Of a DNA stretch of 64,000 nucleotides, positions 8,340 through 24,750 are shown piece by piece. The translations under genes and the position numbers were made by a program. This DNA comes from Candidatus Nanoarchaeia archaeon. Lineage in GTDB: Archaea; Nanobdellota; Nanobdellia; SCGC-AAA011-G17; JAFCDX01. How positions within the stretch are numbered: position 1 is the stretch's first letter; each line of letters begins with the position of its first letter. The notes below the pieces were generated by a model. The model was not told where the DNA came from, searched no databases, and saw only the letters and a list, made by a program, of their open reading frames with translations. The DNA lies in the NCBI GenBank assembly GCA_041651575.1, contig JBAZJB010000001.1, positions 639,286-703,285 of the forward strand, written 5' to 3'.

Positions 8340-8873
8340 ATGAAAGATATATTTGATTCAAAGGTTTTGTGTGAAAAGTGTAATACTTTAACTACAAAGA
8401 AAACTATGGTTAAAGATGGTTTTCAAATTAGAATTCTAGAATGTCCTAAATGTGGTAATATATTATTCCATCCTGTTGATGTAGAAAAATACAACGAATT
8501 CAATAGAATAAAGAAAAAGCAATTCAATGTTAAATTAAGAATGGTTGGTAATTCTTATACAGTATCTATTCCTAAAGAAATTATAGATTTTTTCAATGAG
8601 GAAGAAGAGCAAAAAGATCCTTTTGAACAAATTCATAAGAAAATGAAGGAAGATATGGAAAGAATGAATAGAATGGTTACCTTAGCGTTTAAAGAAGCAA
8701 ATACTTTATCCTTGAATTTTGGTCCTGAAGGAAATTATGAAAGAACAATTGAAAAAGATGGAAACATTGTTACTGAAAAAGCAGAAACTAGAAAGCTACC
8801 AAATGGATTTATTACAAAAAAGATTAGATTAATAAAGTCAAACAAAAACAAAAAGGAACTTGAAAATGAGTGA
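8340..8873 (+). CDS. zinc-ribbon plus AbrB/SpoVT-like domain protein
   Basis: CEKC...CPKCG zinc ribbon followed by [19 protein letters not shown] (SpoVT/AbrB-like swapped hairpin). The ATG at 8340 sits about 30 nt after a TATA box; the track start 8331 is a GTG. Confidence 0.45.
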
Positions 8874-11142
8874 AGTCAAATTAAAAGTTATGGAAGCACT
8901 GCAGGAAGAAGCATACAAAGGTATTGTTAGAATTGATGCTCAAACCATGAAAGATATTGGAGTTCATGTAGGTGATATTATAGAAATTGAATCAGGAAAG
9001 AAAACAGTGGGTATTGTTGATAGAGCTTATCCTACTGATGTTGGTCAATCTGTTATTAGAATGGATGGTATTATAAGAAAAAATGCAAAAACTTCTATTG
9101 GAGAATTTGTTACAATAAGAAAAGCAGATGTTAAAGAAGCAAAAAGCATTACAATCGCTCCTGCACAGCAAGGAATTATGGTTCAAGCAGATCCTGAAGT
9201 TTTCAAAAATGGATTACTTGGAAGAGCTGTTGTAAAAGGAGATCAAATTTCTCTTGGTGGTGGAGCTAGGAGAAGAAGAACATTTAGTGGAAGTCCTTTT
9301 GAAGATATTTTTGATGTGTTTGAATCTAATTTTGGAAATTTTGGAATGGGTGGATTAAAATTTGTTGTAATTAATACTGCTCCTAAAGATGGAGTTATAA
9401 TTACTGAAAATACTCAGATAAAAGTTAATCCAAAAGCAATGGAAGTTGATGAAGAAACAAAAATTATTGATGTTACTTATGAAGATGTTGGTGGATTAGA
9501 AGAAGAAGTAAAAAAAGTTAGAGAAATGATAGAACTTCCTATGAGACATCCTGAATTATTTAAAGCTCTTGGTATTGATCCTCCAAAAGGAGTTTTATTA
9601 CACGGTCCACCTGGAACAGGAAAAACATTATTAGCTAAAGCTGTTGCATCAGAAACAGAAGCAAATTTTATGTTGATTAATGGTCCTGAAATCATGAATA
9701 AATTTTATGGTGAATCTGAGAAAAAAGTAAGAGCTATTTTTGAAGAAGCAGAAAAAAGTGCACCTTCTATTATATTCATTGATGAAATTGATGCTATTGC
9801 TCCAAAAAGAGAAGAAGTTCAAGGTGAAGTTGAACGTAGAGTTGTTTCACAATTATTAACAATGATGGATGGATTAAAAGGTAGAGGTAATGTAGTTGTT
9901 ATTGGAGCTACTAACAGACCAAATTCAATTGATCCTGCTTTAAGAAGACCTGGTAGATTTGATAGAGAAATACAAATTGGAATTCCAAATAAAATTGGAA
10001 GATTAAATATTTTAAAAATTCATACAAGAAACATGCCATTAACAGAAGATGTTAATTTAGAAAACTTGGCTGAAATTACTCATGGTTTTGTTGGTGCTGA
10101 TGTAGAAAGTTTATGTAAAGAAGCTGCTATGAGTGTATTAAGAAATATATTACCTTCAATAAAATTAAAAGAAAAAGAAGCTTTACCAAAAGAAGTTCTT
10201 AATAAATTAAAAATTACTATGGATGATTTCAAAAATGCTTTAAAAATTGTTAGACCTAGTGCTATGCGTGAAGTACTTGTTGAAATTCCAAATGTACACT
10301 GGTTTGATATTGGTGGATTAGAAGAATTAAAACAAGAATTAAAAGAAGCAGTTGAATTGCCATTGAAAAATCCTAAAGCTTTTTCCAAATTAGGAATAAA
10401 AGCTACAAAAGGAGTTTTGATTTATGGTCCTCCTGGAACAGGAAAAACTTTACTTGCTAAAGCTGTTGCTAATGAATCTCAAGCTAATTTTATTTTAGTT
10501 AGAGGTCCTGAATTGTTAGATAAGTTTGTTGGAGAATCTGAAAAAGGTGTTAGAAAAATATTTGAAAAAGCAAGACAAGCTAGTCCTGCTATTGTATTTT
10601 TTGATGAAATAGATTCTATTGCACCAAGAAGAGGTTCACAAGGAACAGATGCAGGTGTGACAGAAAGAGTTGTTAATACTATTTTGACTGAAATGGATGG
10701 ACTTGAAGAATTATCTGATATTGTTGTAATAGCTGCTACTAATAGACCTGATTTGATTGATCCTGCTTTACTTAGACCAGGAAGATTTGATAGAATTATA
10801 TTTACAGGAATGCCTGATAAAGAATCAAGATTGCAGATATTAAAATTACATACTGCTAAAATGCCTTTGGCTAAAGATGTTAAACTTGATAAATTAGCAG
10901 AATTGACAGAAGGATTTATGGGAGCAGATATTGAAGGTCTTTGCAGAGAGGCTGGATTATTGACTTTAAGAATGGATCTTAAGGCTAATGAAATTGGCAT
11001 GGAAATGTTTGAAAAAGCTCTTGAAAAAACCAAACCTTCTGTTTCAGAAGATGACTTGAAAAGGTATAAGGCAATTGAAGAGCAGTATTTGAAAAAAGCA
11101 AGAAGTGCTACTTTAGAGAATAGACAAGAGTATTTTGGATAA
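8866..11142 (+). CDS. cdc48: Cdc48/VCP-like double AAA+ ATPase
   Basis: Two AAA modules, each with [15 protein letters not shown] Walker A and IIFIDEID / IVFFDEID Walker B, plus an N-terminal double-psi barrel region. ATG at 8866; the track start 8860 is a TTG. Confidence 0.93.
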
Positions 11143-11143
11143 A

Positions 11144-11452
11144 ATGAAAACGTTATTGGAACTAAAGAAAGAACTGCAAGATCTCCAAAACAAACATAAA
11201 GATATATCTGATAGAATAGAAACACAAAATAAGATTGATAAATTAAAGGAACAAATTATATTATTAGAATTAAAAAAGATTAAACCTGCAAAAAAAGTTA
11301 ATAATCCTGTTTTGAAGGTTATTAAAACTATTTTTATAGGATTTGGTAAAACAGGAAAGTATATTTGGAATAATGGTTTGAAAGGAATGTTTGAACATTT
11401 AGGAAGAGCAGGGATTAAAATGCACAATCTTGATAATAAAAAAAAGAAATAA
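11144..11452 (+). CDS. small coiled-coil hypothetical protein
   Basis: ATG at 11144 directly follows the cdc48 stop. Charged heptad-like N-terminal half. Confidence 0.35.
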   Translation: MKTLLELKKELQDLQNKHKDISDRIETQNKIDKLKEQIILLELKKIKPAKKVNNPVLKVIKTIFIGFGKTGKYIWNNGLKGMFEHLGRAGIKMHNLDNKKKK

Positions 11453-11453
11453 A

Positions 11454-12101
11454 ATGAGCTTTAAACTATCCCCCAGTTCGTTATCTTTAATGGAAGATTG
11501 TCCTAGATGTTTTTGGCTTACACAACATAAAGTCTGGTCAAGACCTGCATCTATATTTCCTTCTTTACCTTCTGGAATGGATTCTATTTTAAAGAAACAT
11601 TTTGATAAATTTATGGAAAAAGGAGAATTACCTCCTGAATTGAATAAATCTGAGTGTAAAGGTAGTTGTAGCTTGTTTAATGATCAGGAAAAACTAAGTA
11701 TTTGGAGAAGCAATTTTAAAGGCATTTCTTTTACTGATAAAGAGGGAAATATATTACATGGGGCTATTGATAATATACTTGTTAAAGGAAAGAAATTGAT
11801 TGTTTTGGATTATAAGACTAGAGGATTTCCATTAAAAGAAGATACTCATGAACATTATCAGAATCAACTGGATATTTATAATTTTTTACTTAGAAAAAAT
11901 GGATATGAAACAGAAGATTATGGTTTTTTATTGTTTTATCATCCTAAAGAAGTTTTAGAAAATGGGGATGTTGTTTTTAATACTGATCTTAAGAAGATGA
12001 AAATTGATGTTGATAACGCTAAGAAAATATTTATTAAGGCTATTGAGTTGCTAAATAAGGATTGTCCTACTAAACATTGTGTTTGGTGCGAGGGGAAATA
12101 A
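11454..12101 (+). CDS. Cas4-like PD-(D/E)XK nuclease with cysteine cluster (stand-alone, no CRISPR nearby)
   Basis: N-terminal CPRCFWL. GAIDNILV...VLDYKT gives D...(D/E)xK. QLDIYNFLL is QxxxY-like. C-terminal CPTKHCVWC. ATG at 11454. Confidence 0.7.
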   Translation: MSFKLSPSSLSLMEDCPRCFWLTQHKVWSRPASIFPSLPSGMDSILKKHFDKFMEKGELPPELNKSECKGSCSLFNDQEKLSIWRSNFKGISFTDKEGNILHGAIDNILVKGKKLIVLDYKTRGFPLKEDTHEHYQNQLDIYNFLLRKNGYETEDYGFLLFYHPKEVLENGDVVFNTDLKKMKIDVDNAKKIFIKAIELLNKDCPTKHCVWCEGK

Positions 12102-12102
12102 G

Positions 12103-15100
12103 ATGGAAAATTTGTTTTTAACAGATCAGGATGTTATAAAGATTTTTAAAGAACATTTAAAAATAGAAAGCAGGGTTATTCCAATAGAAGAATTATTTAA
12201 GATTAGAAATAAAAATAAAATAGATTTTAAACCTTATTACCAGAGAAATTATGTTTGGAATAATGAAAAAGCATCATATTTTATCGAAAGTTTATTAATT
12301 GGAACAGAAATTCCCCCACTCATTTTTTTCCATGGAAACAATAATAATATTGAGATTATTGATGGTAGGCAAAGATTTGAAACAATATATAATTTTTTAG
12401 AAGATAAATTAACATTAAATGAAAAGGGTTTAATTATACTTAAAAGTTTAGATAAAATAAAGTATTCTAAATTGGCCCCAGAATTATTAACTAGATTTTT
12501 AGAATCTAAGATTAGGGTAATTGATTTTAAATTAATTAATGAACCTAAATTGGATATAAAAAAAGAAGATTTAATTAAAAAAGAAATTTTCAGAAGGTAT
12601 AATTCAGGAATAACTCCTTTGAGAAGGTCCGATGTAGATAAAGCCGTTTTCATAGACGATCCCATTACTAAAAAGCTAAAAGATAAATTTGTTGCAGATA
12701 AAGATTTTTATTTAAAAAATGTAGTGCTATTTTATCCCAAAAAAAGGGATTATAATAGTAAATCTACATTAGAAGAATTAATTTCTAAGATTAGATTATT
12801 ACTCGTTCTTCATTTAATACCTACTAAATATTATTCTACATTAAAAAATAGAAAAGATATAATGAATATGCTTTATAATAAATATTCCGAAGAGCAAGAA
12901 GATTTAACCTCTTTTTTAAATGAATATGAAAAAAAGATATCCTATATTAATAATATTAAAAATAGTTTCAGTACAGATAATTATAACCAATTAATGTCAG
13001 AATGTCTTTTTTGGGTTTTTAATGTTATTGAAAATGAAGGGTACTCATTAAAAGACATTTTAGATGTACCTTTTATAGAAAGTATATCTAAGAGTTTAGA
13101 AAATAATTGTGATATTTATAGTGAAAAAAATTCACATTTTTTTAAAGAATTTAATCAAAGATATAGATTTACTTTAGAGATATTTGAAAAAAAATTAATG
13201 AAAGATTTTAAAATTTATTTAGACTTATATAATGCTAAAGAAGTGAGGGATAACATTGACTTATCCAAAACTGATGAAAAGGCAGGAATTTTAGAAAATT
13301 CATTTATTACAAAACCTGCTCCAATGGATATGACCATAGAATCTATAATTATTAAGATGGAAAGGAATAATTTTAAGGTTAGGCCTATCTATCAAAGAAG
13401 CGAAGTTATGAACATAAGCAAAGCTTCCTCTTTAATTGAAAGTATTTTATTGGATATAAAATTACCTCCTATATTTATTTATAAAAATAAAAATTCTGTT
13501 TCGGAAGTAGTTGATGGACAACAAAGAATTTTAGCTATTTTAGGTTTTATTGGAAAAAGTTATAAAGATGAAAATGGAAATATAGTTAAATCTAATAAAA
13601 ATGATTTTAAATTAAAAAATTTAACCATTTTAAAAGAATTAAATGGTCTTAAATTTAGTCAACTAGAAGAAAAATATCAAAATAGGATATTAGATTTTAA
13701 TTTATTCATTGTTGAAATTGATTCTTCAATTAATGAAAACTTTAATCCAATAGATTTATTTATAAGACTTAATTCTAAACCTTACCCTATTAAAGAAAAT
13801 ACTTTTGAAATGTGGAATTCATATGTGGATATAGAGATAATTAAAAAAATAAAGGAAAATACTAAAAAAATAGAAAATTGGTTTTATATTAAAAAACCCG
13901 AAAGTGATAAAAGGATGGAAAATGAAGAGTTGTATACCACCTTAGTTTATATAAATTATATGCAAGAGTATCAATCTGAGAAATTTTCTAAGATAGTTGA
14001 TATTCATAAAAGGGATGATAGAATTAATTGTAGGATTTCTGATAAAAAGGATATTTCAAAGGTATTAAATTATTCTTCTATAGATGAAAATGAAAAAGAA
14101 AAATTTATTGCTTCTATAAAAAATATTGAAGCAATTATGTTAAAAATCAAGACTTTATTAATAAGATCAAATATAGAAGAAGGAAAATTAGATAATTATC
14201 TAGAAAGTGAATTGGATAAATTATTCTATTTAAAAGCTAGGAGAAGATTACAAAATTTTTATCTTTTATACCCATTGATTAAAAGTATTAATTTAGAAAG
14301 AGTTAGAGAAAAAAGAGAAGAACTTTTTAATGATATTCTTGAGACTTATAAAAGAACCTCGAACCTTAAAGAAAATGAGGATGAGGAAGTTTATTTTGAA
14401 AAAATATCTTTATTGGATGATAAATGGACGCGTGACAAAAGGAAAATAATATTAACTTTAGAAGAAAAGAAACAAATATTATTAAATCAAAAAAATTTCT
14501 GTCCACTTTGTAATTCAGTTCTTTTCCATGGGGAAGATATCGAAGTAGACCATATAATTCCCATTTCCATGGGGGGAAAAGATAAAATAGAGAATTTACA
14601 AATTACTCATAAGGATTGTAACAGGAAAAAAGGAACTAAAAACATTAAAAAATATTTATATGAACCCATTAATTTAGAGGATATTGAAGTATACTTATCT
14701 AAGCACGAAAATGAAAATTTAGAATTTAAATCTACTTTATCCTGGAATATTAAAGGTAAATTAAGAGATACTGAAATTGAAAATTCGGTATTAAAAACTA
14801 TAGCTGCTTTTAATAACTTTGATGGGGGGGTATTACTAATAGGAATTGATGATAATAAGAATATATTGGGATTAGATTATGATTTTAAGGAAGGAAATTT
14901 AAAAGATGTAGACAAATTTGAGAATCATTTAAGGAATATTATCAAAGAAAGATTAATAGCAGAACAATGGTATATATCAAAAAACTTCAAAATTTCTTTT
15001 GAAAACATTGAAAATAAAATAGTTTGTATAATTAAAATTGATAAGGGCACAAAACCAATATATACTAAAGATAACAAATTTTTCATAAGAAACGGAAATA

Positions 15101-15162
15101 GAACTATTCAGTTAGAACTCAGCGAAATTGTACAATATGTAAAAAATAATTTTGAAGAGTGA
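12103..15162 (+). CDS. 1019-aa multidomain protein: DUF262 (ParB-like) x2 + HNH nuclease + AlbA_2/Schlafen-type domain
   Basis: Module 1: YYQRNYVWNNEKASYFIESLL...IIDGRQRFETI. Module 2, from about codon 425: IYQRSEVMNISKASSLIESILL...VVDGQQRILAI. HNH: CPLCNS...EVDHIIPISMGGKDKIENLQITHKDCNRKKG. C-terminus: NLEFKSTL...IAAFNNFDGGVLLIGIDDNKNILGLD. ATG at 12103 lies 1 nt after the Cas4-like stop. Confidence 0.8.
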   Translation: MENLFLTDQDVIKIFKEHLKIESRVIPIEELFKIRNKNKIDFKPYYQRNYVWNNEKASYFIESLLIGTEIPPLIFFHGNNNNIEIIDGRQRFETIYNFLEDKLTLNEKGLIILKSLDKIKYSKLAPELLTRFLESKIRVIDFKLINEPKLDIKKEDLIKKEIFRRYNSGITPLRRSDVDKAVFIDDPITKKLKDKFVADKDFYLKNVVLFYPKKRDYNSKSTLEELISKIRLLLVLHLIPTKYYSTLKNRKDIMNMLYNKYSEEQEDLTSFLNEYEKKISYINNIKNSFSTDNYNQLMSECLFWVFNVIENEGYSLKDILDVPFIESISKSLENNCDIYSEKNSHFFKEFNQRYRFTLEIFEKKLMKDFKIYLDLYNAKEVRDNIDLSKTDEKAGILENSFITKPAPMDMTIESIIIKMERNNFKVRPIYQRSEVMNISKASSLIESILLDIKLPPIFIYKNKNSVSEVVDGQQRILAILGFIGKSYKDENGNIVKSNKNDFKLKNLTILKELNGLKFSQLEEKYQNRILDFNLFIVEIDSSINENFNPIDLFIRLNSKPYPIKENTFEMWNSYVDIEIIKKIKENTKKIENWFYIKKPESDKRMENEELYTTLVYINYMQEYQSEKFSKIVDIHKRDDRINCRISDKKDISKVLNYSSIDENEKEKFIASIKNIEAIMLKIKTLLIRSNIEEGKLDNYLESELDKLFYLKARRRLQNFYLLYPLIKSINLERVREKREELFNDILETYKRTSNLKENEDEEVYFEKISLLDDKWTRDKRKIILTLEEKKQILLNQKNFCPLCNSVLFHGEDIEVDHIIPISMGGKDKIENLQITHKDCNRKKGTKNIKKYLYEPINLEDIEVYLSKHENENLEFKSTLSWNIKGKLRDTEIENSVLKTIAAFNNFDGGVLLIGIDDNKNILGLDYDFKEGNLKDVDKFENHLRNIIKERLIAEQWYISKNFKISFENIENKIVCIIKIDKGTKPIYTKDNKFFIRNGNRTIQLELSEIVQYVKNNFEE

Positions 15163-15217
15163 GTTATTAACTCAAGATTGCCCAAAGAAAACCTGGGAAT
15201 GGCGTGAAGGGAAATGA
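15158..15217 (+). pseudogene. decayed duplicate of the Cas4-like gene 3' end
   Basis: Ungapped alignment to 12042-12101 gives about 39 of 60 nt identical (hand count). Translation SELLTQDCPKKTWEWREGK* versus IELLNKDCPTKHCVWCEGK*. The cluster cysteines are replaced by W and R. Confidence 0.55.
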
Positions 15218-15375
15218 AAAAATTAAAAAAACCAATAAAATTAGAAGATTTATATTATAATACAAAAGGTCCAATTAAAACAATAACTTTTAACACTTTC
15301 AAAACAGTAACTTTTGGTAAACTAAAGAGCGCTATAACTGGAAAAGAAATAACTCTAAGAAAAAAGAAAAAATGA
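15214..15375 (+). CDS. possible 53-aa basic ORF (below the track length cutoff)
   Basis: ATGA overlap with the remnant stop. Translation MKKLKKPIKLEDLYYNTKGPIKTITFNTFKTVTFGKLKSAITGKEITLRKKKK. No family recognised and it may be non-coding. Confidence 0.2.
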   Translation: MKKLKKPIKLEDLYYNTKGPIKTITFNTFKTVTFGKLKSAITGKEITLRKKKK

Positions 15376-15503: not shown

Positions 15504-17276
15504 ATGAGTATGATATCTAACAAGAAGGATTGGTTAGAGAAAAGATATTACCTTTTATTAGAAGAATTTAAAGATAGAGAATTTGATAGAGAAGAAGTAA
15601 TAAAGGTTTTAACTGAAAAAAGCCATGACTATAAAGACAGTGTACCTGTAATACTGACAGAATTAAAAAATGAGGGTTATCTTAATGTTAGATTAGACCC
15701 AAAAGATTCTAGAAAAAGGCTTTATACTTTAAAATCAAACAATGAAATAATAAAAGAAAAATTAAATTTAAATAAAGAAGTCTTAACAAGACAAGATATT
15801 GATAGAATATTAAAAAAAGCAGCCGATTTAATTAGAACAAGGGTGGATTATAAATTTATACTTATATTACTTTTTTTAAAAAGAATTTCTGATAAATGGG
15901 AAGAAGAATTTGAACATGTATTAAAAGATATAGAAAAAGAGGGTTTATCTGGAGATGCAGCAATTAATGAAGCTAAACGTACAGAATATCATAAATTTGA
16001 TTTACCTGAAGAATACTTATGGGATAATTTAAGGAAAGAGGTTGAAAAACTTCCTGAAAAATTTTCTGAAGCATTGAAAAATATTGCTGAAAGAAATCCC
16101 GAATTGCGAGATGCTTTAGAAAATACTGATTTTATTCAATTTACATCAAATAATGAAAATGCTGAATTATTAAGACAGCTTGTTGAATTATTTTCAGAAA
16201 AGAAATTACATCATGTATCTCCCGATATATTAGGGGATGCCTATGAATGGATTTTGAGATATTTTGCACCAGATAAAGCCAAAGAAGGAGAGGTATATAC
16301 TCCCAGAGAAGTTATTCAACTTATTGTTGAAATCTTAAAACCTTTGGCAAAGGAAAGTGTTTATGATCCGACCTGCGGAAGTTCTGGAATGTTGATTTCT
16401 TCATATAAGTATGTTGAAGAAAAACAAGGAAAAGAAGGAGCAAGAAAATTATTTTTATTTGGACAAGAGTATAATCCTAAGACTTTGGCTTTAGGAAGAA
16501 TGAATATGTATATTCATGATATTAGAGACTTTAATCTACAAGGTGGTGATACTTTGATATATCCAAGATTAAAGCAAGGTGATGAACTACAAAAATTTAA
16601 CATTGTAATCGCAAATCCCCCCTGGAATCAAGATGGTTATGATGAATCAAGACTAAAGCAAGGAGAATTTTGGAAAACCCGTTTTAAATACGGTTTTGTT
16701 CCAGGACAATCAGCAGACTGGGCATGGATTCAGCATATGTTAGCTTCTTCTAAAGATGATACTGGGAGAATTGGGGTTGTCATGGATAATGGTTGTTTAT
16801 TCAGAAGTGGAAAAGAAAAAGCGATTAGGCAAAGAGTAATTGAAGAAGATTTAATAGAAGCAGTCCTTCTTTTGCCAGAAAAATTATTCTATAACACGGG
16901 AGCTCCTGGAGCAATCATTATTTTAAGGAAAAATAAACCTAAAGAAAGAAAAGGGAAGATTCTTTTCATCAATGCTTCAAATGAATATGAAAAACATCCT
17001 GATGTTAGAAAGCTGAATACTCTTACAAAAGAGAATATGAAGAACATAGTTCATGCCTATGACAAGTTTGAATATAAGGAAGGATTCTCAAGGGTGGTTG
17101 ATAAAAAAGAGCTTAAAGAAAATGATTTTAACTTGAATGTTTCATTATATATATATCCAGAAGAGGAACATGAAAATATTGATGTTCATAAAGAATGGTC
17201 TGAACTGAAAACATTAGAAAAAGAGAGAGGCGAATTAGACAAGAAGATTGAATTATTCTTGAAGGAGATAAAGTAA
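15504..17276 (+). CDS. hsdM: type I restriction-modification methyltransferase subunit HsdM with extra N-terminal winged-helix domain
   Basis: Motif I VYDPTCGSSGML. Motif IV IANPPWNQ (NPPW, N6-adenine). HsdM_N-like LFLKRISDKWEEE. The first ~95 aa look wHTH-like (LTELKNEGYLNVRLDPKDSRKRLYTL). Confidence 0.92.
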   Translation: MSMISNKKDWLEKRYYLLLEEFKDREFDREEVIKVLTEKSHDYKDSVPVILTELKNEGYLNVRLDPKDSRKRLYTLKSNNEIIKEKLNLNKEVLTRQDIDRILKKAADLIRTRVDYKFILILLFLKRISDKWEEEFEHVLKDIEKEGLSGDAAINEAKRTEYHKFDLPEEYLWDNLRKEVEKLPEKFSEALKNIAERNPELRDALENTDFIQFTSNNENAELLRQLVELFSEKKLHHVSPDILGDAYEWILRYFAPDKAKEGEVYTPREVIQLIVEILKPLAKESVYDPTCGSSGMLISSYKYVEEKQGKEGARKLFLFGQEYNPKTLALGRMNMYIHDIRDFNLQGGDTLIYPRLKQGDELQKFNIVIANPPWNQDGYDESRLKQGEFWKTRFKYGFVPGQSADWAWIQHMLASSKDDTGRIGVVMDNGCLFRSGKEKAIRQRVIEEDLIEAVLLLPEKLFYNTGAPGAIIILRKNKPKERKGKILFINASNEYEKHPDVRKLNTLTKENMKNIVHAYDKFEYKEGFSRVVDKKELKENDFNLNVSLYIYPEEEHENIDVHKEWSELKTLEKERGELDKKIELFLKEIK

Positions 17277-17277
17277 G

Positions 17278-17577
17278 ATGGAAGTAAAACGAGCTTTCCA
17301 AATTTTAGTTTATGGTATAGTCTTAATTGCCCTAATTGGAACTCTTATTGGGCTTTCCACCAAGGTAGTAGATAATATTATTAATCTATTTATTTCAGCA
17401 GGTTTGGGTTTAGTTTTTGCTGCAATTTCTGGAAAAGTTATTGAATTATTCTCAGATGATACTCTGAAAGAAATATTTTGGACAGTTGAATTTGAACTGT
17501 GGGGCTATGAGATTGAAATACCAATTTCCTTGTTTACTATATTCACAATAATAATTAGATTATGGTGGTTTGGATAA
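17278..17577 (+). CDS. 99-aa three-TM membrane protein embedded in the hsd operon
   Basis: Hydrophobic segments ILVYGIVLIALIGTLIGL, LFISAGLGLVFAAISG and ISLFTIFTIIIRLWWF. Starts 1 nt after the hsdM stop. Confidence 0.55.
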   Translation: MEVKRAFQILVYGIVLIALIGTLIGLSTKVVDNIINLFISAGLGLVFAAISGKVIELFSDDTLKEIFWTVEFELWGYEIEIPISLFTIFTIIIRLWWFG

Positions 17578-17578
17578 A

Positions 17579-18577
17579 ATGGCTAAAAACAAAAACAGAA
17601 AAACTTTAAGAAAACCATTATTGAACCCCGAGTATTATAAGGAATTAGAATCTGATGAAATTTATTCAGATAATACAAGATTGGGAAAAGTTTTTGGAGC
17701 AAAAAATAAGTTAAATAATCAAAAGTTTATTAGGGCAATTTCCGAGTCAAAAAGACCTTATGGATGGAGAAAAAACTATGGGTTTGATTTATTTGATTCA
17801 TTACATTTAGACAAGCTTATAAATTCCTTGAAAAAAATTGCAAGAAAATTTGGATGGAAATTTAAAGATGTTGAAGAAGACTTTTCAAAGCTAAAAGAGG
17901 GTATAAGGCAACAACAAGAAATAATCTCAAATTTAAGTAAAGCAAATAAGGATGCAAAAGTTAATTATGAAATATTACTTAAAAAATATAAGGAACAGGA
18001 AGAAAAGGAGATTATAAGCAGGGCTAGCGAATTTAATACAGCAATAGAAAATTTAAGAAGCAAAATCCTGGAAGTAGAAAGTAGGCGTATAGCAGAAAGC
18101 GAACTACAAGAATTTTTATATAAAAACAGTTGGATGTTGGGAACAGAATATATTAGCTCAGAGCCTCAAAAGATGAGGGGTGCAAGGAGTAGATTTGATT
18201 TTTATCTGGAAAGATTTAACAAAACTAATGATGTTGTTGAAATTAAATTATTATCTGACAAGATAATAAATCAAGATGAGAGCATAAGTGCAAAAGTAAT
18301 TCAAGCAGTAGATCAATTAATTGACTATTTAGAAAAAACAATTAGCGTTGCACATAGTACAACGGAATCTGAAGAAGAAGGAATAAAAGAATTAAGACCG
18401 AGAGGAATTTTGATAATAGGAAAGGACAATTCTTTAGAAGCGAAAAAAAAGTTAAATAAATGGAATTATCAATTTGTCCATATTCATATTTATACTTACC
18501 AAGATATTTTAGAAAAAGCAGAAGCATTAATGAAACATATTGAAAAGAGAAAACATAAAAATGAAACAACAAACTAA
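17579..18577 (+). CDS. Shedu-like (DUF4263) PD-(D/E)xK nuclease-domain protein with coiled-coil N-terminal half
   Basis: C-terminal half reads ESELQEFLYKNSWMLGTEY...SRFDFYL...DVVEIKLL...AVDQLIDYLEK...PRGILIIGK...IHIYTYQDILEKAE. This follows the DUF4263/SduA nuclease pattern (D...ExK, Q..Y, viG, tYd.ll). ATG at 17579. Confidence 0.65.
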   Translation: MAKNKNRKTLRKPLLNPEYYKELESDEIYSDNTRLGKVFGAKNKLNNQKFIRAISESKRPYGWRKNYGFDLFDSLHLDKLINSLKKIARKFGWKFKDVEEDFSKLKEGIRQQQEIISNLSKANKDAKVNYEILLKKYKEQEEKEIISRASEFNTAIENLRSKILEVESRRIAESELQEFLYKNSWMLGTEYISSEPQKMRGARSRFDFYLERFNKTNDVVEIKLLSDKIINQDESISAKVIQAVDQLIDYLEKTISVAHSTTESEEEGIKELRPRGILIIGKDNSLEAKKKLNKWNYQFVHIHIYTYQDILEKAEALMKHIEKRKHKNETTN

Positions 18578-19757
18578 AATCCCTGAAAATTGGAAATTGA
18601 AAGAAATAAAAGAAATCTTTAGTGTTGAGACCGGAACAACGCCCCCAACCAAAGAAAAGATTTACTGGGAAAATGCTACAATAAACTGGGCAACTCCTGC
18701 TGATCTTGGAAAACTAAATGGAAATATACATTTTCAAGAGAGTGAAAGGAAGATTTCTAAAACTGCATTGAATGACATAAATTTAACATTGATGCCCAAG
18801 AATACTATTATTGTTTCGACAAGAGCCCCAGTGGGATATGCAGTTGTCATAAAAAAAGAGAGTACATTTAACCAGGGATGCAAGGGTCTCATTCCTAAAA
18901 AAGAAAATGATGCTGATCCATATTTCTATTGTTATTATTTAATAAATAAAAAGTATGAATTACAAAATCGAGCTGGGCAAAGCACATTTAAGGAGCTGTC
19001 TAAAGATATGTTTGAAAGTTTTGAGGTATTACATCCTCCATTTGAAGAACAAAAAGCAATTTCTAAGATTTTTTCAGAAGTTGATTTAGAATTAGATAGT
19101 ATAGAGAGAGAGAGACAAGCAACAGAGCGACTCAAGAGGGGTATTATGGTAAGGTTGCTCGAAGGGAAAAAATGGAAGGTTGTTAAATTGGGAGAGATAG
19201 TAGAATTTGCGAAGGGCAAAAAACCCCAACTAATGATTGATGAACAAAAAGAAGATTATCTGCCTTATTTGTCTACGGACTATTTAAGAGAAAACTTAGG
19301 AACTAAATATGTTTCCCCTTCAGAAGATGTGGTCTTAGTTAAAAATGGAGAAATAATACTATTGTGGGACGGCTCAAATGCCGGAGAATTTTTTGAAGGA
19401 AAAGAAGGAGTTTTATCAACCACAATGGTTAAATTTGATCTTAAAACGGACATTCATCAAAAATATCTTTTATATCTGTTAAAGTCTAAACAATTTTATC
19501 TACAAGGACAAACAAATGGAACAGGGATACCTCATGTTGATAGAAAAGTTTTGATGAATTTAGATATTTCTTTGCCTCTAATTGAAGAACAAAAACATAT
19601 CGCTGAAATATTAAACACCCTAGATCAAAAACTTGAGCTTGAACTAAAAAGAAAAGATAAACTTGAAAGAATCAAGAAAGGTTTAATGAATGATCTCCTA
19701 GCTGGAAATAAAAGAGTCAATATTGAAAAGGTCTTGAAAATTGGGGGCGGAAAATGA
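18561..19757 (+). CDS. hsdS: type I R-M specificity subunit HsdS (two target-recognition domains)
   Basis: IPENWKLKEIKEIFSVETGTTPP and WKVVKLGEIVEFAKGKKP start two TRDs. Conserved helical spacers are EEQKAISKIFSEVD and EEQKHIAEILNTLD. Confidence 0.85.
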   Translation: MKQQTKIPENWKLKEIKEIFSVETGTTPPTKEKIYWENATINWATPADLGKLNGNIHFQESERKISKTALNDINLTLMPKNTIIVSTRAPVGYAVVIKKESTFNQGCKGLIPKKENDADPYFYCYYLINKKYELQNRAGQSTFKELSKDMFESFEVLHPPFEEQKAISKIFSEVDLELDSIERERQATERLKRGIMVRLLEGKKWKVVKLGEIVEFAKGKKPQLMIDEQKEDYLPYLSTDYLRENLGTKYVSPSEDVVLVKNGEIILLWDGSNAGEFFEGKEGVLSTTMVKFDLKTDIHQKYLLYLLKSKQFYLQGQTNGTGIPHVDRKVLMNLDISLPLIEEQKHIAEILNTLDQKLELELKRKDKLERIKKGLMNDLLAGNKRVNIEKVLKIGGGK

Positions 19758-20494
19758 CTTTTGATGATGAAACAAAACAGAGAATCTTTCAACAGGCTAT
19801 TGATATTTTTGTAATCCCTGAAATAGAAAGGAGAAAAAAGATAAATAAATTACCTTCAGATTTTAAATTAGATAAAATCCAAATTATATTTTCTTCCAAG
19901 AGTGGAAGAAATTATGTAAGACTAAATAAGGAAGTTGATGTAATTATTAAATGCAAGGTAAATAAGCCTATCAAAAAAGGGGATATAGTTTATGAGAACG
20001 ATATAGATCAAATTGAGTCAGTTGAACTAACAAAAGGAGATTTAAATTATGGGCATATTACTTTATTAGCTTTTAAGGGGAATTGGATAGTTTCATTTAA
20101 TTTTATTTATAATAAAGAAGAAATTAAGAAGCATATTGAAGCATCTAAAGAGTTCTATGAAAGTGCAAAAGATAATTTAGAAAAGAAAAGATTAAGACCT
20201 TTTTTTGAGAATGCTTTTGCTTGTGCTGAATTATTTACTAAAAGTGTATTATTATCTTTGCCAAATAAAAAGTTCTTTGAAGGAAAAGACCATCGAAAAA
20301 AAAAGGAGTTTCTTAAAAATTGGGCAAATTTAGGAAATGTTAAAATTGAGTTTAGCACGACCTTGTCTAAACTATACTCTCTGAGAAGTTCAGCGAGGTA
20401 TCTTTCTTCTGATAACTACAAAAAAGAAAATGCTAAAGGAATACTTTCAATATTAGATGAGATGATTAAATCTTCGGAGGACCTAACAAAATGA
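19754..20494 (+). CDS. protein with C-terminal classical HEPN-like domain, embedded between hsdS and hsdR
   Basis: AFACAELFTKSVLL...GKDHRKKKEFL...LSKLYSLRSSARYLSSD follows the HEPN helical pattern (KavLl..H..l...L..lR..a.Y). The N-terminal ~120 aa are unassigned. ATGA overlaps on both sides. Confidence 0.45.
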   Translation: MTFDDETKQRIFQQAIDIFVIPEIERRKKINKLPSDFKLDKIQIIFSSKSGRNYVRLNKEVDVIIKCKVNKPIKKGDIVYENDIDQIESVELTKGDLNYGHITLLAFKGNWIVSFNFIYNKEEIKKHIEASKEFYESAKDNLEKKRLRPFFENAFACAELFTKSVLLSLPNKKFFEGKDHRKKKEFLKNWANLGNVKIEFSTTLSKLYSLRSSARYLSSDNYKKENAKGILSILDEMIKSSEDLTK

Positions 20495-23400
20495 CACAAC
20501 AAAATGAAAAGAAACTGGTAGAGAATTATATGATTGATAAGTTTGTTAATCAGAATAAATGGACTTACATTCCTGGAGGCAAACTTGAAAGAGAAAGCAA
20601 TGAAGAGCCTCTTTTAATTAAGAATCTTGTTTCTGCTATAAAGAAGATAAATGATACTAATTTATCTGAAGAAGATATTCAAGAAGTTTTGAAACAACTT
20701 AGATTAAGAGGCGTTGGGGTTGATGATTCTAAAAAGATTTTAGGATTCTTTAAGTTTGGAGTTTCAGTAAAACTCTCTAAGACTAAAGAGCTTGTTAGAG
20801 TCAAGTTATTTGATTATGATCATGTTGATAACAACGAGTTTATTGTAACTAATCAAATTCATTATGAATCTTCAGCTGGGGAAATTATTCCAGACATTGT
20901 TTTGTATGTTAATGGTATACCTTTAGTTATAATCGAATGTAAAGATATGACTTCTTCGTCTACAAGTTGGAAAGATGCTTATAATGATATTGTTGGAATT
21001 TATAGAAATAAGGTTAGAGAACCCTTCAAGTATTTTCAAATTGGAGTTGCAGCAGAACAAAAAGTAAAATATTTTCCAATAGTTTCGTGGGCTGAGGATA
21101 TTAAAGTTTGTGAGTGGAGAGATGAAAATAGAATAGAATTAGGAACAGATAGTTCTATGACTGGAATATTTGAGATGCTAACTAAAGAAGGCTTATTAAA
21201 TCTTATTAGAGATTTCATTTTTGTAAGAGAAGAGGGGGGAGAGAAAACAAAAGTAATTACAAGATATATGCAATATAGGGCAGTTAATAAAATCGTGGAT
21301 AGGGTTAAAACCAACATAGAAGGAAAAGAAAAAAAGAACAAAGGTTTAGTTTGGCATTGGCAAGGATCAGGAAAAACATTGACAATGGCTTTTGCAGCGC
21401 ACAAATTGTATTATCTTAAAGAATTAGAAAATCCAACCCTCTTTTTTATTTTAGATAGAACCGAACTTGAAGAACAGATGTATAATGAATTAAATGCTTT
21501 AGAGATGCCAAAAGTAGAGTCTATAGGATCAATTCAAGAATTAAAAAGAATATTAGAATATGATGAAGGAAAAGGTAAAAGAGGATTATTTACAATACTT
21601 ATCCATAAGTTTAGACCTGGAGACTTTGAAGATTTAAGAAAAGAATTAGAAAATAAGGATGTAGATAAACAAACCTTTTTGACAAGAAAAAATGTTATCG
21701 CTTTTATTGATGAAAGTCATAGATCTCAATATGGTCTACTTGCTTCTCAGATGAAAGCACTTTTAAAAAATGCTTTCTTTTTTGCATTTACTGGAACACC
21801 AATAAACAAAAAAGATAATAAAAATACATATCTTGAATTTGCTTATCCCCCCACCGAATTATATCTTGATAAATATTTTATTAAAGATGCCATTAGTGAT
21901 GGATTTACTTTAAAAATAGCTTATCAACCAAGACTTGAAAAAGAAGTTCATCTAAAAACAGACCAACTTACAATTTTGTTAGAAGCTGAAGATGTAGAAC
22001 TACCAGATGAAAAAAGAAAAGAATTTCAAGAAAGAGTAAAGAAAAATATTACAATACAAAAAGCTTATTATAAAAATAGGGAAAGAATAAAGAGGATTAG
22101 CGAAGATATAACAAAACACTTCAAAGAAAATCTCGATGGAAGATTTAAAGCGATGATAGTTGCAGTTGATAGAGAAGCTTGCGTTCATTATAAAGAAGAA
22201 TTAGACAAATTATTGCCGGGATATTCAGAAATTGTAATGACTTTTACCTCTGATGAGAGATCTAAAGATATTCAAGAATATCTGAATAAACTTCATGAAA
22301 GATTCCCAAATAAAGAACTTTCTGAAATAATGAAAGAAATTACTGGAAAATTCAAAGAAGAAGAGAATCCAAAAATACTAATTGTTACAGATATGTTACT
22401 TACTGGTTTTGATGCTCCTATTTTGCAAACAATGTATTTAGATAAACCCCTAAGAGAACATAGGTTATTACAAGCAATAGCAAGAACTAATCGTCCATTT
22501 AAAAATGTTAAAGAAGCAGGTTTAATTGTAGATTATTTAGGAATATTAAAAGAATTTAAGAAAGCTTTTGAAATTTATACAAAAGAGGATATCAAAGGAG
22601 CTCTTTATGATCTGAATGAAATTAAGAAAGAGTTTGAAGATTTACTTAAAGAAACTTTAGATTTATTTAAAGATTATCCTGAAAGAAAATTGGATAGCAG
22701 GGTATATTTATTGGAAATAGTGAGAAGTTTATTAGCTGATTCTCTTAAATTAAGGAAATTTATAGATAATATTAAAGAGTTAAGAAAAAAGTTTGAACTT
22801 CTTGGATCAGATGAATCCAAAGTAATTTATTATAAAGAATTGATTTGGCTTGAGGCAATATATGAAACCTATAAAAAAGAAGTATATCAAGAGACAGAAG
22901 ATGAAACTGATACTTATTTAAGAAAATATTTTGCTAAAACAATTAGATTTATTCACAAAAGCACAGAAATTGAGAATCTTAAAGAAAACTTACCTGTTAT
23001 AGATTTTGATGAGAATTATATTAAAAAATTAGAAGAAAAATATAAAACTAAAGAAGAAAGAGCCGCAAACATTGTATTTACATTAAATAGGTATATACTT
23101 GTGGATAGAGATGACAAAAAACTTTATGAAACTTTAATTGATAAAGTACAAAGATTATTTGATTCTTGGAGAACTAAAACAAAAGATTTTGAAACAATTT
23201 ATAAGGAAGGAATAAAAATCATTCAAGAAAGAAATAAACTTCTTCAAAGGAAGAAAGATCTTAAATTAAGTAATTTTGAATTTTCATCATTAATCCTTTT
23301 AGAAAAAAAGATAGGGGAAGAAAAAGTTCTTATAGAAGATATTAAAGAATTAGCAAAAGAGCTTTTCAGTGAGAAATATATATTCACAAATTGGACATCT

Positions 23401-23547
23401 CAAATTTTTACTAAAAAAGAAATTCAAAAAGTAATAAGGAAGTTATTACTAGGTTATATTAAAAAATATAATCTATCTATAGAAGATGTTAATGAGCTAA
23501 GCTTAAAAATATTTGAAAACTTGAAACAATATGAAAAAAGAGGTTAA
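20491..23547 (+). CDS. hsdR: type I restriction enzyme subunit HsdR
   Basis: N-terminal nuclease IPDIVLYVNGIPLVIIECK. Helicase motif I WHWQGSGKTLTMAF, motif II FIDESHRSQ, and QAIARTNRP. 1018 aa. Confidence 0.92.
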   Translation: MTQQNEKKLVENYMIDKFVNQNKWTYIPGGKLERESNEEPLLIKNLVSAIKKINDTNLSEEDIQEVLKQLRLRGVGVDDSKKILGFFKFGVSVKLSKTKELVRVKLFDYDHVDNNEFIVTNQIHYESSAGEIIPDIVLYVNGIPLVIIECKDMTSSSTSWKDAYNDIVGIYRNKVREPFKYFQIGVAAEQKVKYFPIVSWAEDIKVCEWRDENRIELGTDSSMTGIFEMLTKEGLLNLIRDFIFVREEGGEKTKVITRYMQYRAVNKIVDRVKTNIEGKEKKNKGLVWHWQGSGKTLTMAFAAHKLYYLKELENPTLFFILDRTELEEQMYNELNALEMPKVESIGSIQELKRILEYDEGKGKRGLFTILIHKFRPGDFEDLRKELENKDVDKQTFLTRKNVIAFIDESHRSQYGLLASQMKALLKNAFFFAFTGTPINKKDNKNTYLEFAYPPTELYLDKYFIKDAISDGFTLKIAYQPRLEKEVHLKTDQLTILLEAEDVELPDEKRKEFQERVKKNITIQKAYYKNRERIKRISEDITKHFKENLDGRFKAMIVAVDREACVHYKEELDKLLPGYSEIVMTFTSDERSKDIQEYLNKLHERFPNKELSEIMKEITGKFKEEENPKILIVTDMLLTGFDAPILQTMYLDKPLREHRLLQAIARTNRPFKNVKEAGLIVDYLGILKEFKKAFEIYTKEDIKGALYDLNEIKKEFEDLLKETLDLFKDYPERKLDSRVYLLEIVRSLLADSLKLRKFIDNIKELRKKFELLGSDESKVIYYKELIWLEAIYETYKKEVYQETEDETDTYLRKYFAKTIRFIHKSTEIENLKENLPVIDFDENYIKKLEEKYKTKEERAANIVFTLNRYILVDRDDKKLYETLIDKVQRLFDSWRTKTKDFETIYKEGIKIIQERNKLLQRKKDLKLSNFEFSSLILLEKKIGEEKVLIEDIKELAKELFSEKYIFTNWTSQIFTKKEIQKVIRKLLLGYIKKYNLSIEDVNELSLKIFENLKQYEKRG

Positions 23548-24106
23548 AATATTTAATTCAAGCATACAATATTGTATAGATTATCGTAGTGTGAAATATC
23601 CTAGATTAGAATTTAGAACAGGAATGTTAAATATCATACTTCCCTATGATTATGAAAATGAGCATAATCTATTAAATATACATAAAAATTGGATAATAAA
23701 AAAACAGAGAGCTATTAATTTTGCATTAAATAAATCAAAGGACAAACAATTAATAAATAGAAATTTAAATAACTTAAAAAAGATTGTTTTAGATTATTAT
23801 AACAAAAATTCCAATAATTTTAAAGCTAAAAAAATACAATTTAGACATATGAAATCAAAATGGGGGAGTTGTAGTTCAGATAAAGTTTTGACCTTTAATT
23901 CACTTTTAAGATTTTTACCTCTAAATCTTATTCAATATGTTGTTTATCATGAAATGTTACATCTCAAAGAAAAAAAACACAATAAAACCTTTTGGAATAT
24001 CATTTCTAAAAAGTTTACGAATTATCCATTAAAAGAAAAAGATTTATTTATATATTGGTTTTTAATACAAAAAAATTATAATTTAAATTTTTCTTTAAAA
24101 CTATAA
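23531..24106 (+). CDS. DUF45/YgjP-type zinc metallopeptidase-fold protein
   Basis: VVYHEMLHLKEKKHNKTFW (HExxH...H) and the N-terminal Y.l.rs.r pattern (CIDYRSVKYPRLEF). 17-nt overlap with the hsdR end. Confidence 0.72.
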   Translation: MKKEVKIFNSSIQYCIDYRSVKYPRLEFRTGMLNIILPYDYENEHNLLNIHKNWIIKKQRAINFALNKSKDKQLINRNLNNLKKIVLDYYNKNSNNFKAKKIQFRHMKSKWGSCSSDKVLTFNSLLRFLPLNLIQYVVYHEMLHLKEKKHNKTFWNIISKKFTNYPLKEKDLFIYWFLIQKNYNLNFSLKL

Positions 24107-24750
24107 TAATTATCCTTTCCCAAAATAATATGATCTAATAAAGGTATATTTAAAATTTCTCCTACTTCTTTTATTTTAACTGTAGTAAATATGTCTCCTT
24201 CACTAGGATTACAATCTCCAGAAGGATGATTATGGACTAAAATAATAGATTTAGCACTTTCTCTAATAGCTTCCTTAAAAATTTCTCTTGGATGTGCTAA
24301 AGAACTATCCAAAGTACCAATACTAACAACAGTTCTTTTAATAATCTTATTTTTAACATCTAAATACAAACAAATAAAATATTCTTTTTTCTCATTTCCA
24401 TATTCATCAACTAATAAATCATAAACATCCTTAGCACAACTAATACTATTTTTAAAACCTTCACGTTTTAATTTATTATATCTTTTAAAAAGTTCAATTA
24501 AGCTTAAAACCTTTAAAACTTTAACTTTATCACCTTTAAACTCTCTTAAAAGTTCATTAAAACCAAGATCTTCAAGTTTATTCAAGTTATATTTCTTTAA
24601 TAGTCTATTACTCATCTCTAAAGCACTTTCTCTATAACTTCCTTCCCAAAAGAGAATAGATAATAACTCTGCTTCATCTAAATTTTTAGCTCCTTTTCTA
24701 ATTAATTTAGAATCGGGTCTATTAAACGAAGGAAGATCAAAGATTCTCAT
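24076..24750 (-). CDS. radC: RadC-like JAB/MPN domain protein
   Basis: ILVHNHPSGDCNPSEGD (JAMM-like HxHPSG) and an N-terminal HhH-like region AELLSILF. Converges on the DUF45 gene with a 31-nt overlap. Confidence 0.85.
   Translation of the reverse strand: MRIFDLPSFNRPDSKLIRKGAKNLDEAELLSILFWEGSYRESALEMSNRLLKKYNLNKLEDLGFNELLREFKGDKVKVLKVLSLIELFKRYNKLKREGFKNSISCAKDVYDLLVDEYGNEKKEYFICLYLDVKNKIIKRTVVSIGTLDSSLAHPREIFKEAIRESAKSIILVHNHPSGDCNPSEGDIFTTVKIKEVGEILNIPLLDHIILGKDNYYSFKEKFKL

Follow-up and report, generated by a model that had tools for sequence, protein, structure and literature searches.

A nanoarchaeal fusion of 2 DUF262 modules, an HNH domain and a Schlafen-type AlbA_2 domain as a candidate single-gene antiviral nuclease

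What does a single archaeal gene do that joins 2 DUF262 modules, an HNH nuclease domain and a Schlafen-type AlbA_2 domain in 1 polypeptide, and does it need partners to do it? We analyzed this question for a gene in a stretch of 64,000 nucleotides (nt) from a Candidatus Nanoarchaeia archaeon (assembly GCA_041651575.1, contig JBAZJB010000001.1, positions 639,286 to 703,285 of the forward strand), hereafter the window, in which position 1 is the first letter. The gene encodes a protein of 1019 amino acids (aa). With moderate confidence, we propose that it is a single-polypeptide nuclease acting against viruses or other mobile genetic elements, in which a nucleoside triphosphate (NTP)-gated pair of DUF262 modules would control an HNH DNase and a Schlafen RNase as second effector.

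The open reading frame (ORF) at 12103..15162 is translated without interruption on the plus strand, and Pfam places its domains in the order GmrSD_N/DUF262 twice, then HNH, then a C-terminal SLFN_AlbA_2. A preliminary description, made from the sequence without database searches, had named these 4 domains, and all 4 calls hold in Pfam (GmrSD_N twice, E 2.3e-30; HNH, E 1.9e-11; SLFN_AlbA_2, E 9.4e-19), with the motifs where it had placed them. The 4-domain assignment is thus confirmed far beyond chance. An earlier in-frame start candidate, GTG at 12079, was identified, and the start is likely ATG 12103 because this codon has a Shine-Dalgarno-like GAGGGG 8 nt upstream, lies after the TAA of the upstream gene and encodes the residue with which homologue N-termini coincide. 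The gene and its domains are as follows.

12103..15162, plus strand: tandem-DUF262/HNH/Schlafen (AlbA_2) gene, 1019 aa, stop codon 15160-15162
12157..12687, plus strand: predicted ParB-like DUF262 NTPase domain of module 1, aa 19-195 (Pfam, alignment, motifs)
12688..13257, plus strand: all-helical ParBDB-like domain of module 1, aa 196-385 (AlphaFold2 (AF2) secondary structure; predicted local distance difference test (pLDDT) mostly 85-95)
13324..13857, plus strand: predicted ParB-like DUF262 NTPase domain of module 2, aa 408-585 (Pfam, PADLOC, alignment, motifs)
13858..14442, plus strand: helical ParBDB-like domain of module 2, aa 586-780 (best PADLOC NsnA stretch aa 409-679; AF2 pLDDT 85-96)
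14488..14640, plus strand: HNH (ββα-Me, PF01844) nuclease domain, aa 796-846 (Pfam, PDB matches, conservation)
14686..15159, plus strand: Schlafen-type AlbA_2 domain of the prokaryotic Schlafen (pSlfn) type, aa 862-1019 (Pfam, PDB profile search, AF2, Foldseek)

The GmrSD_N/DUF262 family (PF03235) matched 2 stretches of the protein, and each carries a full set of motifs. In module 1, we identified QR at 47-48 (within QRxYVW, 47-52), DGRQR at 87-91 (nt 12361-12375) and FRRYN at 163-167, and in module 2, QR at 431-432, the canonical DGQQR at 471-475 (nt 13513-13527) and FIRLN at 553-557. Across a family alignment of 36 sequences, 42-69% identical to the 1019-aa protein, residues D87, G88, Q90 and R91 of module 1 and D471, G472, Q473, Q474 and R475 of module 2 were invariant, along with the QR and F..xN motifs of each. 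Aligning the protein to itself confirmed the duplication, with aa 19-194 matching aa 409-585 at 29% identity (E 4e-15), and the 2 stretches are, judged by this similarity, true paralogues of ancient origin. The modules also differ in a way that is fixed family-wide, module 1 having QRxYVW and the non-canonical DGRQR and module 2 having QRxEx(I/M)N and the canonical DGQQR, without the Trp. Because these differences are fixed across the family, they point to sub-functionalised partners and not to a recent redundant duplication.

The best PADLOC match of the protein was the Menshen sensor NsnA (PDLC03877), at E 1.8e-55 and again over 2 stretches, and both modules of the homologues cover positions 39-382 of the 385 positions of the NsnA profile. 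NsnA has been described as DUF262 plus ParBDB, and the name of the ParBDB domain is taken from that source (PMC12065111). Each module of ~385 aa therefore reads, by profile similarity, as an NsnA-like unit of ParB-DUF262 and ParBDB.

The nuclease that follows was matched by the Pfam HNH family over aa 800-845. Its motifs comprise CPLC at 800-803 (C800-x2-C803), D816-H817 (nt 14548-14553), N831, H836, C839 and N840, with D816 and H817 invariant in the alignment, and the AF2 model places strands at 813-817 and 832-836, followed by a helix at 837-843. Together, sequence and model provide the D/H-H general base, structural Asn and metal-binding H/N on a ββα core that are expected of an HNH nuclease. 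The region also matches PDB HNH domains, including 4h9d, 6me0 and Cas9, and is weakly matched by the Septu PtuB models of PADLOC. DUF1524 (PF07510) had no Pfam match in the protein even at E<=1.

At the C-terminus, Pfam SLFN_AlbA_2 (PF04326) matched aa 869-1004, and the domain carries LEFK at 873-876, FDGG at 906-909 and IGIDD at 913-917, with the catalytic-type motif E869-NENL-E874-F-K876 (Ex4ExK, nt 14707-14730) accompanied by D908 and D917. A profile of the domain searched against the PDB matched SLFN12, SLFN11, SLFN13 and SLFN14 (best E 7e-9, SLFN12), and in the HMMER alignment the 2 catalytic glutamates of SLFN12 ('ESTHVEIK') and SLFN11 ('ESQSIEFK') line up with E869 and E874. No fused member lacks E869, E874 or K876, and at least 90% of the 70 AlbA_2 relatives have them; all fused members strictly keep the Ex4ExK motif and the downstream Asp. 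The AF2 model of the domain, built on the 70-sequence alignment, reached a pLDDT of 93.9, and all 31 of its Foldseek matches in the PDB at E<=0.001 were AlbA_2/Schlafen/SAMD9 tRNase-type folds, with TM-scores of ~0.5-0.62. In its nearest relatives, a short pSlfn module is joined to a receiver, cNMP-binding, bPH or DUF1524 domain, which fits an effector that would be plugged onto varied sensors.

Prokaryotic Schlafen tRNases have Ex4(E/D)xK as their active site (PMC13056530, PMC13462974; both 2026). Of 5,930 pSlfn proteins examined, 97% were fused to putative sensors, and 1.8% to DUF262 (PMC13056530). CbCash cuts tRNA by means of an E17/D22/K24 triad and Mg2+ (PMC13462974). EcoSlfn7, a DUF262-Slfn protein of E. 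coli UC4224, defends E. coli and reduced T7 plating ~540-fold, T7 being the phage against which it was most effective (PMC13056530, Perez Taboada et al., Nat Microbiol 2026); both tRNA cleavage and phage defence have been shown for RorSlfn5 and CbCash, and defence only for EcoSlfn7 (PMC13056530, PMC13462974). Because the Ex4ExK motif is intact and conserved, and because published work has demonstrated that pSlfn domains act as tRNase effectors joined to sensors, we consider it more likely that the AlbA_2 domain is a second nuclease effector, a predicted tRNase, than a sensor. The proposal of the preliminary description that it is an added nucleic-acid sensor is probably wrong, given the conserved motif and the studies in which DUF262 is listed among the sensor partners of pSlfn tRNases (PMC13056530, PMC13462974).

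The duplicated NTPase module, which the same description had named as a feature of its proposed enzyme, is not confined to this protein. In a search of 5.8 billion proteins, from which 8,000 candidates were scored, 2,133 matched the 1019-aa protein, and an exhaustive phmmer search of 1.84 billion cluster representatives (50% identity) gave 12,301 matches at E<=1e-3, 184 of them at E<=1e-30. Apart from the 4-domain fusions, the matches listed were DUF262-DUF262-HNH proteins of ~850-890 aa without AlbA_2, ~41-47% identical over aa 1-847. Their hosts include Bacillus (B. subtilis), Priestia (P. megaterium), Planococcus, Clostridium (perfringens, botulinum), Clostridioides difficile, many cyanobacteria, Bacteroidota and others, and database names for this ~855-aa family are limited to 'DUF262 domain-containing', 'HNH endonuclease family' and 'GmrSD restriction endonuclease domain-containing'. 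A large family of stand-alone proteins, mostly from bacteria, has tandem DUF262 plus HNH as its conserved core. Literature searches found no paper on a tandem or double DUF262 architecture or on the DUF262-DUF262-HNH core, nor any on the exact 4-part architecture, which the preliminary description had also not recognised as characterised.

The core occurs in several length classes, taken from cluster representatives of the phmmer search with domains assigned by Pfam scan. Proteins of ~855 aa have the HNH domain, those of ~770 aa end after module 2 with no nuclease, and those of ~960-1000 aa carry tandem DUF262 and an unannotated C-terminal domain of ~220 aa, for which Pfam gave nothing significant in the ~970-aa variants. 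A 765-aa nuclease-free form was seen immediately downstream of an unknown gene of 511 aa (L014 2580-4877). A 969-aa form belongs to an operon that also encodes an ABC-type ATPase (AAA_15), a radical-SAM protein and a GMT-wHTH protein and includes an overlapping gene of 502 aa (L015 4085-6994); each of these HNH-free forms may be part of a multi-gene system of its own that uses the same sensor. One member (P0132) has the core with 3 N-terminal DUF4379 zinc fingers. A metagenomic protein of 622 aa (P0229, L013 262-2130) combines a single DUF262 module with HNH and AlbA_2; the ORF upstream of it was considered as a detached module 1 and rejected, having no similarity. In a separate 345-aa protein (P0359), DUF1524 is joined to AlbA_2, so that a His-Me nuclease is paired with Schlafen outside the archaeal clade, as in P0229. 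None of the bacterial ~855-aa loci examined had a separate AlbA_2 gene adjoining. Plasmid and phage collections yielded no full-length relative, but 1 partial copy on a Priestia plasmid and numerous short genes with a single DUF262. On many conjugative plasmids of E. coli and Salmonella, a DUF262 gene of 365 aa with 1 module comes right after the replication initiator gene, and a HEPN-domain gene follows it immediately (L016 3980-5620, IncX1 plasmid NZ_CP102858.1); the 2 genes look like a pair of DUF262 sensor and RNase effector.

The 4-part fusion is far more restricted. We found 7 complete full-length proteins of 1012-1018 aa, 53-69% identical, and an eighth broken by a scaffold gap only; among the 273 relatives collected, the AlbA_2-bearing members were P0001-P0006, P0008, the fragment P0122, P0007 with P0121, and P0229. 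The fusion was thus found to be rare, with about 9 sequences in 1 DPANN clade plus the single-module metagenomic relative, and the species-representative genomes with the full fusion were metagenome-assembled genomes (MAGs) of Candidatus Pacearchaeota, Nanoarchaeota and Woesearchaeota. A natural split into a DUF262-DUF262-HNH protein and an AlbA_2 protein in a Woesearchaeota MAG (P0007 and P0121, L012) was rejected, the break being a scaffold gap of 10 Ns. In a rough neighbour-joining tree of the core, drawn without support values, the fusion-bearing clade is monophyletic and nested among bacterial HNH-type lineages, and for this reason the tree suggests transfer from bacteria followed by a single gain of the Schlafen domain.

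Does the gene act with its neighbours? It sits on a 766-kb contig, in a window of uniform G+C (~26%). Together with a CDC48/VAT-type ATPase gene in the window, this is in keeping with a DPANN-type archaeal host, and the closest orthologues come from Pacearchaeota, Woesearchaeota and Nanoarchaeota MAGs. The surrounding genes are listed below.

8860-11142: CDC48/VAT-type double AAA+ ATPase gene with a CDC48 N-domain, archaeal type
11430..12101, plus strand: Cas4-like PD-(D/E)XK nuclease gene, TAA at 12099-12101, its stop abutting the start of the DUF262 gene (TAA-g-ATG)
15504..24106, plus strand: type I restriction-modification (R-M) operon, starting 342 nt downstream of the DUF262 gene
15504-17276, plus strand: hsdM of the R-M operon
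17278-17577: 99-aa ORF between hsdM and hsdS
17570-18577, plus strand: Shedu SduA_C-like nuclease gene between hsdM and hsdS (PADLOC SduA 4e-20)
18540-19757, plus strand: hsdS of the R-M operon
19754-20494, plus strand: HEPN gene between hsdS and hsdR
20491-23547, plus strand: hsdR of the R-M operon
23531-24106, plus strand: YgjP-like metallopeptidase gene after hsdR
24076-24750, minus strand: RadC/JAB gene, convergent, after the operon

These surroundings are a defence island, with the Cas4-like nuclease upstream and an R-M operon holding Shedu-like and HEPN genes downstream, and both the island and the position directly upstream of the R-M operon (hsdM at 15504) bear out the preliminary description. 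The nested genes of the operon fit the pattern that Payne et al. 2024 describe for 'embedded defence genes'. A 105-aa ORF lies at 11135-11452, before the Cas4-like gene. The 342 nt that separate the DUF262 gene from hsdM contain a lysine-rich ORF of 53 aa at 15214-15375, preceded by a GAAGGG motif. In the window, the Cas4-like gene and the DUF262 gene are probably co-transcribed. As a conserved partner the Cas4-like gene was rejected, being absent upstream of the archaeal orthologues at L001, L002 and L017, with none in the short upstream flank of L010. The archaeal orthologues occupy other settings: L001 and L002 lie between TrmB and a ribosomal-protein operon, L010 beside an insertion sequence (IS) element, L012 next to V-ATPase genes and L017 next to Fic and ATP-grasp genes, and the bacterial ~855-aa homologues also occur in unrelated settings (HicAB, an integrase fragment, a variable B. 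subtilis locus). No methyltransferase partner was present in any archaeal orthologue or bacterial homologue locus examined, and no partner gene was conserved across them. The 1019-aa protein is a self-sufficient single-gene system with no cognate methyltransferase, and it is because the gene neighbourhoods differ between orthologues that we take it to act alone.

Under the reading we prefer, the 2 diverged DUF262 modules would form a putative intramolecular pseudo-heterodimer, a ParB-type NTP switch in cis, and the pair would bind foreign DNA, possibly DNA with modified bases. In GmrSD, BrxU, SspE and DndI, a His-Me nuclease is under the control of a DUF262 that hydrolyses NTP (PMC10952713, PMC11662687), and by analogy with these enzymes and with TgvAB, NTP binding and hydrolysis may serve as the conformational switch that licenses the C-terminal effectors. 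The HNH domain would then nick or cut invading DNA, and the Schlafen domain, acquired once in the archaeal clade, would cleave tRNA or other RNA and shut down translation as a back-up or abortive arm. In its most specific form, the proposal is tentative: a cis-duplicated ParB-type NTPase DNA sensor, an HNH DNase for restriction and a Schlafen tRNase for translation arrest may be combined in 1 polypeptide.

Other functions have to be weighed against this one. The protein may be a type IV-like enzyme with HNH as sole effector and AlbA_2 as a non-catalytic nucleic-acid-binding sensor or regulator (of single-stranded DNA, RNA or modified DNA, for example), which we consider unlikely. Such a role is in keeping with a gene that stands alone without a methyltransferase, with the dependence of GmrSD, BrxU and TgvAB on modification (PMC4619093, PMC8565348, 10.1101/2024.04.04.588119) and with relatives labelled 'putative DNA-binding protein' or 'HTH regulator' in NCBI and JGI. 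The preliminary description had itself proposed a type IV-restriction-like enzyme. A stand-alone nuclease without a methyltransferase would suit such an enzyme, but the nuclease domain is a PF01844 HNH and not DUF1524, so that the protein lacks a feature that defines GmrSD, BrxU and SspE. Binding alone, however, does not need an Ex4ExK motif and downstream Asp as strictly kept as they are here, and in the experimental pSlfn studies, sensing falls to the fused domain and Slfn acts as the effector (PMC13056530, PMC13462974). The ~855-aa family works without AlbA_2, which is hence not required for basic sensing. Phage T7, whose DNA is unmodified, is also the one against which EcoSlfn7 performs best.

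A purely abortive toxin, in which DUF262 would sense infection and both nucleases attack the host chromosome and tRNA with no selective restriction of the invader, appears more doubtful still. It would agree with the cutting of host and phage tRNAs by pSlfn effectors, leading to growth arrest (PMC13056530), with the toxicity of the GmrSD-like EF_B0059 even in non-methylating E. coli (PMC11322646) and with HNH effectors in abortive systems such as Septu, whose PtuB models weakly match our HNH region; yet the characterised DUF262 plus His-Me enzymes act directly on invader DNA (PMC8565348, PMC9646914, PMC11662687), and a very small genome (the gene lies on a 766-kb contig) would be highly vulnerable to its own DNase. 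A non-immune role as a housekeeping or mobile-element nuclease (a ParB-like partition protein, repair factor or homing HNH endonuclease, for example) is very improbable. ParB-fold proteins do act in chromosome segregation, the weak whole-model fold matches include Noc and PadC, and the orthologue beside the IS element would suit a mobile-element nuclease, whereas the patchy distribution, the accessory insertion in the variable B. subtilis locus and the nesting of the fusion clade among bacterial lineages, suggesting horizontal transfer, all speak for an immune gene. So do the defence island of the window and the closest named families, which are all defence proteins in PADLOC, and no parS/ParA, intein or intron context was seen.

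Several observations weigh against the reading we prefer, that of an NTP-gated DUF262 pair with HNH and Schlafen effectors. PDB sequence searches, started from the protein itself and from a profile of the family, returned HNH and Schlafen chains only, with no DUF262 structure at E<=1, and Foldseek of the whole model gave weak ParB/SspE matches, with SspE 6jiv at E 0.1; because these matches are absent or weak, the DUF262 assignment rests on Pfam and PADLOC. The AlbA_2 fold matches include SLFN5 entries, described as DNA/RNA-binding, and the DNA-binding domain of hSAMD9 in complex with DNA (7ksp), both of which favour a binding role, and there are Schlafen/AlbA_2 domains that bind DNA or show no tRNase activity even though their acidic residues are intact. 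pSlfn activity appears, in addition, to need dimers or filaments (PMC13462974). Literature searches found no biochemical or genetic data for the 1019-aa protein or the ~855-aa family. Domain identity, motif integrity and conservation, gene autonomy and distribution are established for the protein, and its putative NTPase activity, trigger, DNA cleavage and tRNA cleavage are drawn by analogy from homologues remote in sequence.

If the proposed function is true, 1 enzyme would unite restriction with abortive-type immunity, and Schlafen-type effectors would be extended to the episymbiotic DPANN archaea, for which this would be the first Schlafen-based immune effector described. The widespread, unnamed ~855-aa DUF262-DUF262-HNH family of Bacillota and cyanobacteria would then be a new stand-alone defence system, present in well-studied, tractable bacteria including B. 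subtilis, C. difficile, C. perfringens and Priestia. The fusion would also be a natural experiment in layering DNA and tRNA cutting under 1 NTP-gated sensor, with the 2 activities separable by point mutants. For DPANN genomes of ~0.8 Mb, a 3-kb defence gene and a ~9-kb type I R-M operon with embedded genes are a notable investment.

Among known systems, the closest in composition is the DUF262-Slfn class of pSlfn proteins, in which a PF04326 Schlafen domain with Ex4(E/D)xK and DUF262 share 1 polypeptide, encoded by a single gene near defence genes. All sequence and fold features of this class are present in the 1019-aa protein, and the class has 1 validated member, EcoSlfn7. The differences are that Slfn here lies C-terminal to a complete DUF262-DUF262-HNH protein, giving 2 putative nucleases, and that the host is a DPANN archaeon; the text of PMC13056530 gives the class as 'DUF262-Slfn' only, and the tandem-DUF262/HNH difference is judged by that description. 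The ~855-aa bacterial proteins (for example those of B. subtilis, C. perfringens, C. difficile, P. megaterium and cyanobacteria), 42-48% identical over aa 1-847, share the same DUF262-DUF262-HNH order, invariant motifs and stand-alone gene, and differ in having no C-terminal Schlafen domain and in their bacterial hosts.

TgvAB of Vibrio cholerae VPI-2, a type IV system of the GmrSD family, likewise has 2 distinct DUF262 units with intact DGxQR-type motifs and 1 His-Me nuclease, and it requires the DGQQR motifs of both units together with that nuclease (10.1101/2024.04.04.588119). It is also physically associated with a type I R-M cluster. However, TgvAB consists of 2 proteins with DUF1524 and no Schlafen domain, whereas here all parts are fused and the nuclease is a PF01844 HNH, and TgvAB lies inside the R-M operon, whereas the 1019-aa gene lies 342 nt upstream of hsdM and its orthologues are not beside R-M genes. 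Menshen provides the best-scoring defence model, each ~385-aa module being ParB-DUF262 plus ParBDB as in NsnA. In contrast to Menshen, the neighbours (Cas4-like upstream, hsdM downstream) gave no NsnB ABC-ATPase or NsnC effector matches, the module duplication is in cis, and the effectors are part of the same polypeptide instead of having genes of their own; the 1019-aa protein, though composed of NsnA-like units, is not a Menshen system.

With GmrSD, BrxU, SspE and DndI, the protein shares an N-terminal DUF262 with DGQQR, a helical, predicted DNA-binding middle domain, a C-terminal His-Me nuclease and a single-gene effector design. Of the features that define the GmrSD family (Machnicka et al. 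2015), DUF262 with DGQQR was identified, whereas DUF1524 with (D/E)HxxP was not; instead, the protein has DHIIP...N...H..CN with a CxxC zinc-finger signature (PF01844), which is of the same superfamily and a different family, and it has 2 DUF262 modules. The solved structures of BrxU, SspE and DndI had no detectable sequence match to it in the PDB search. The component domains and the DUF262-Slfn pairing are thus already known, and the quadruple fusion is a rare, clade-restricted arrangement of them.

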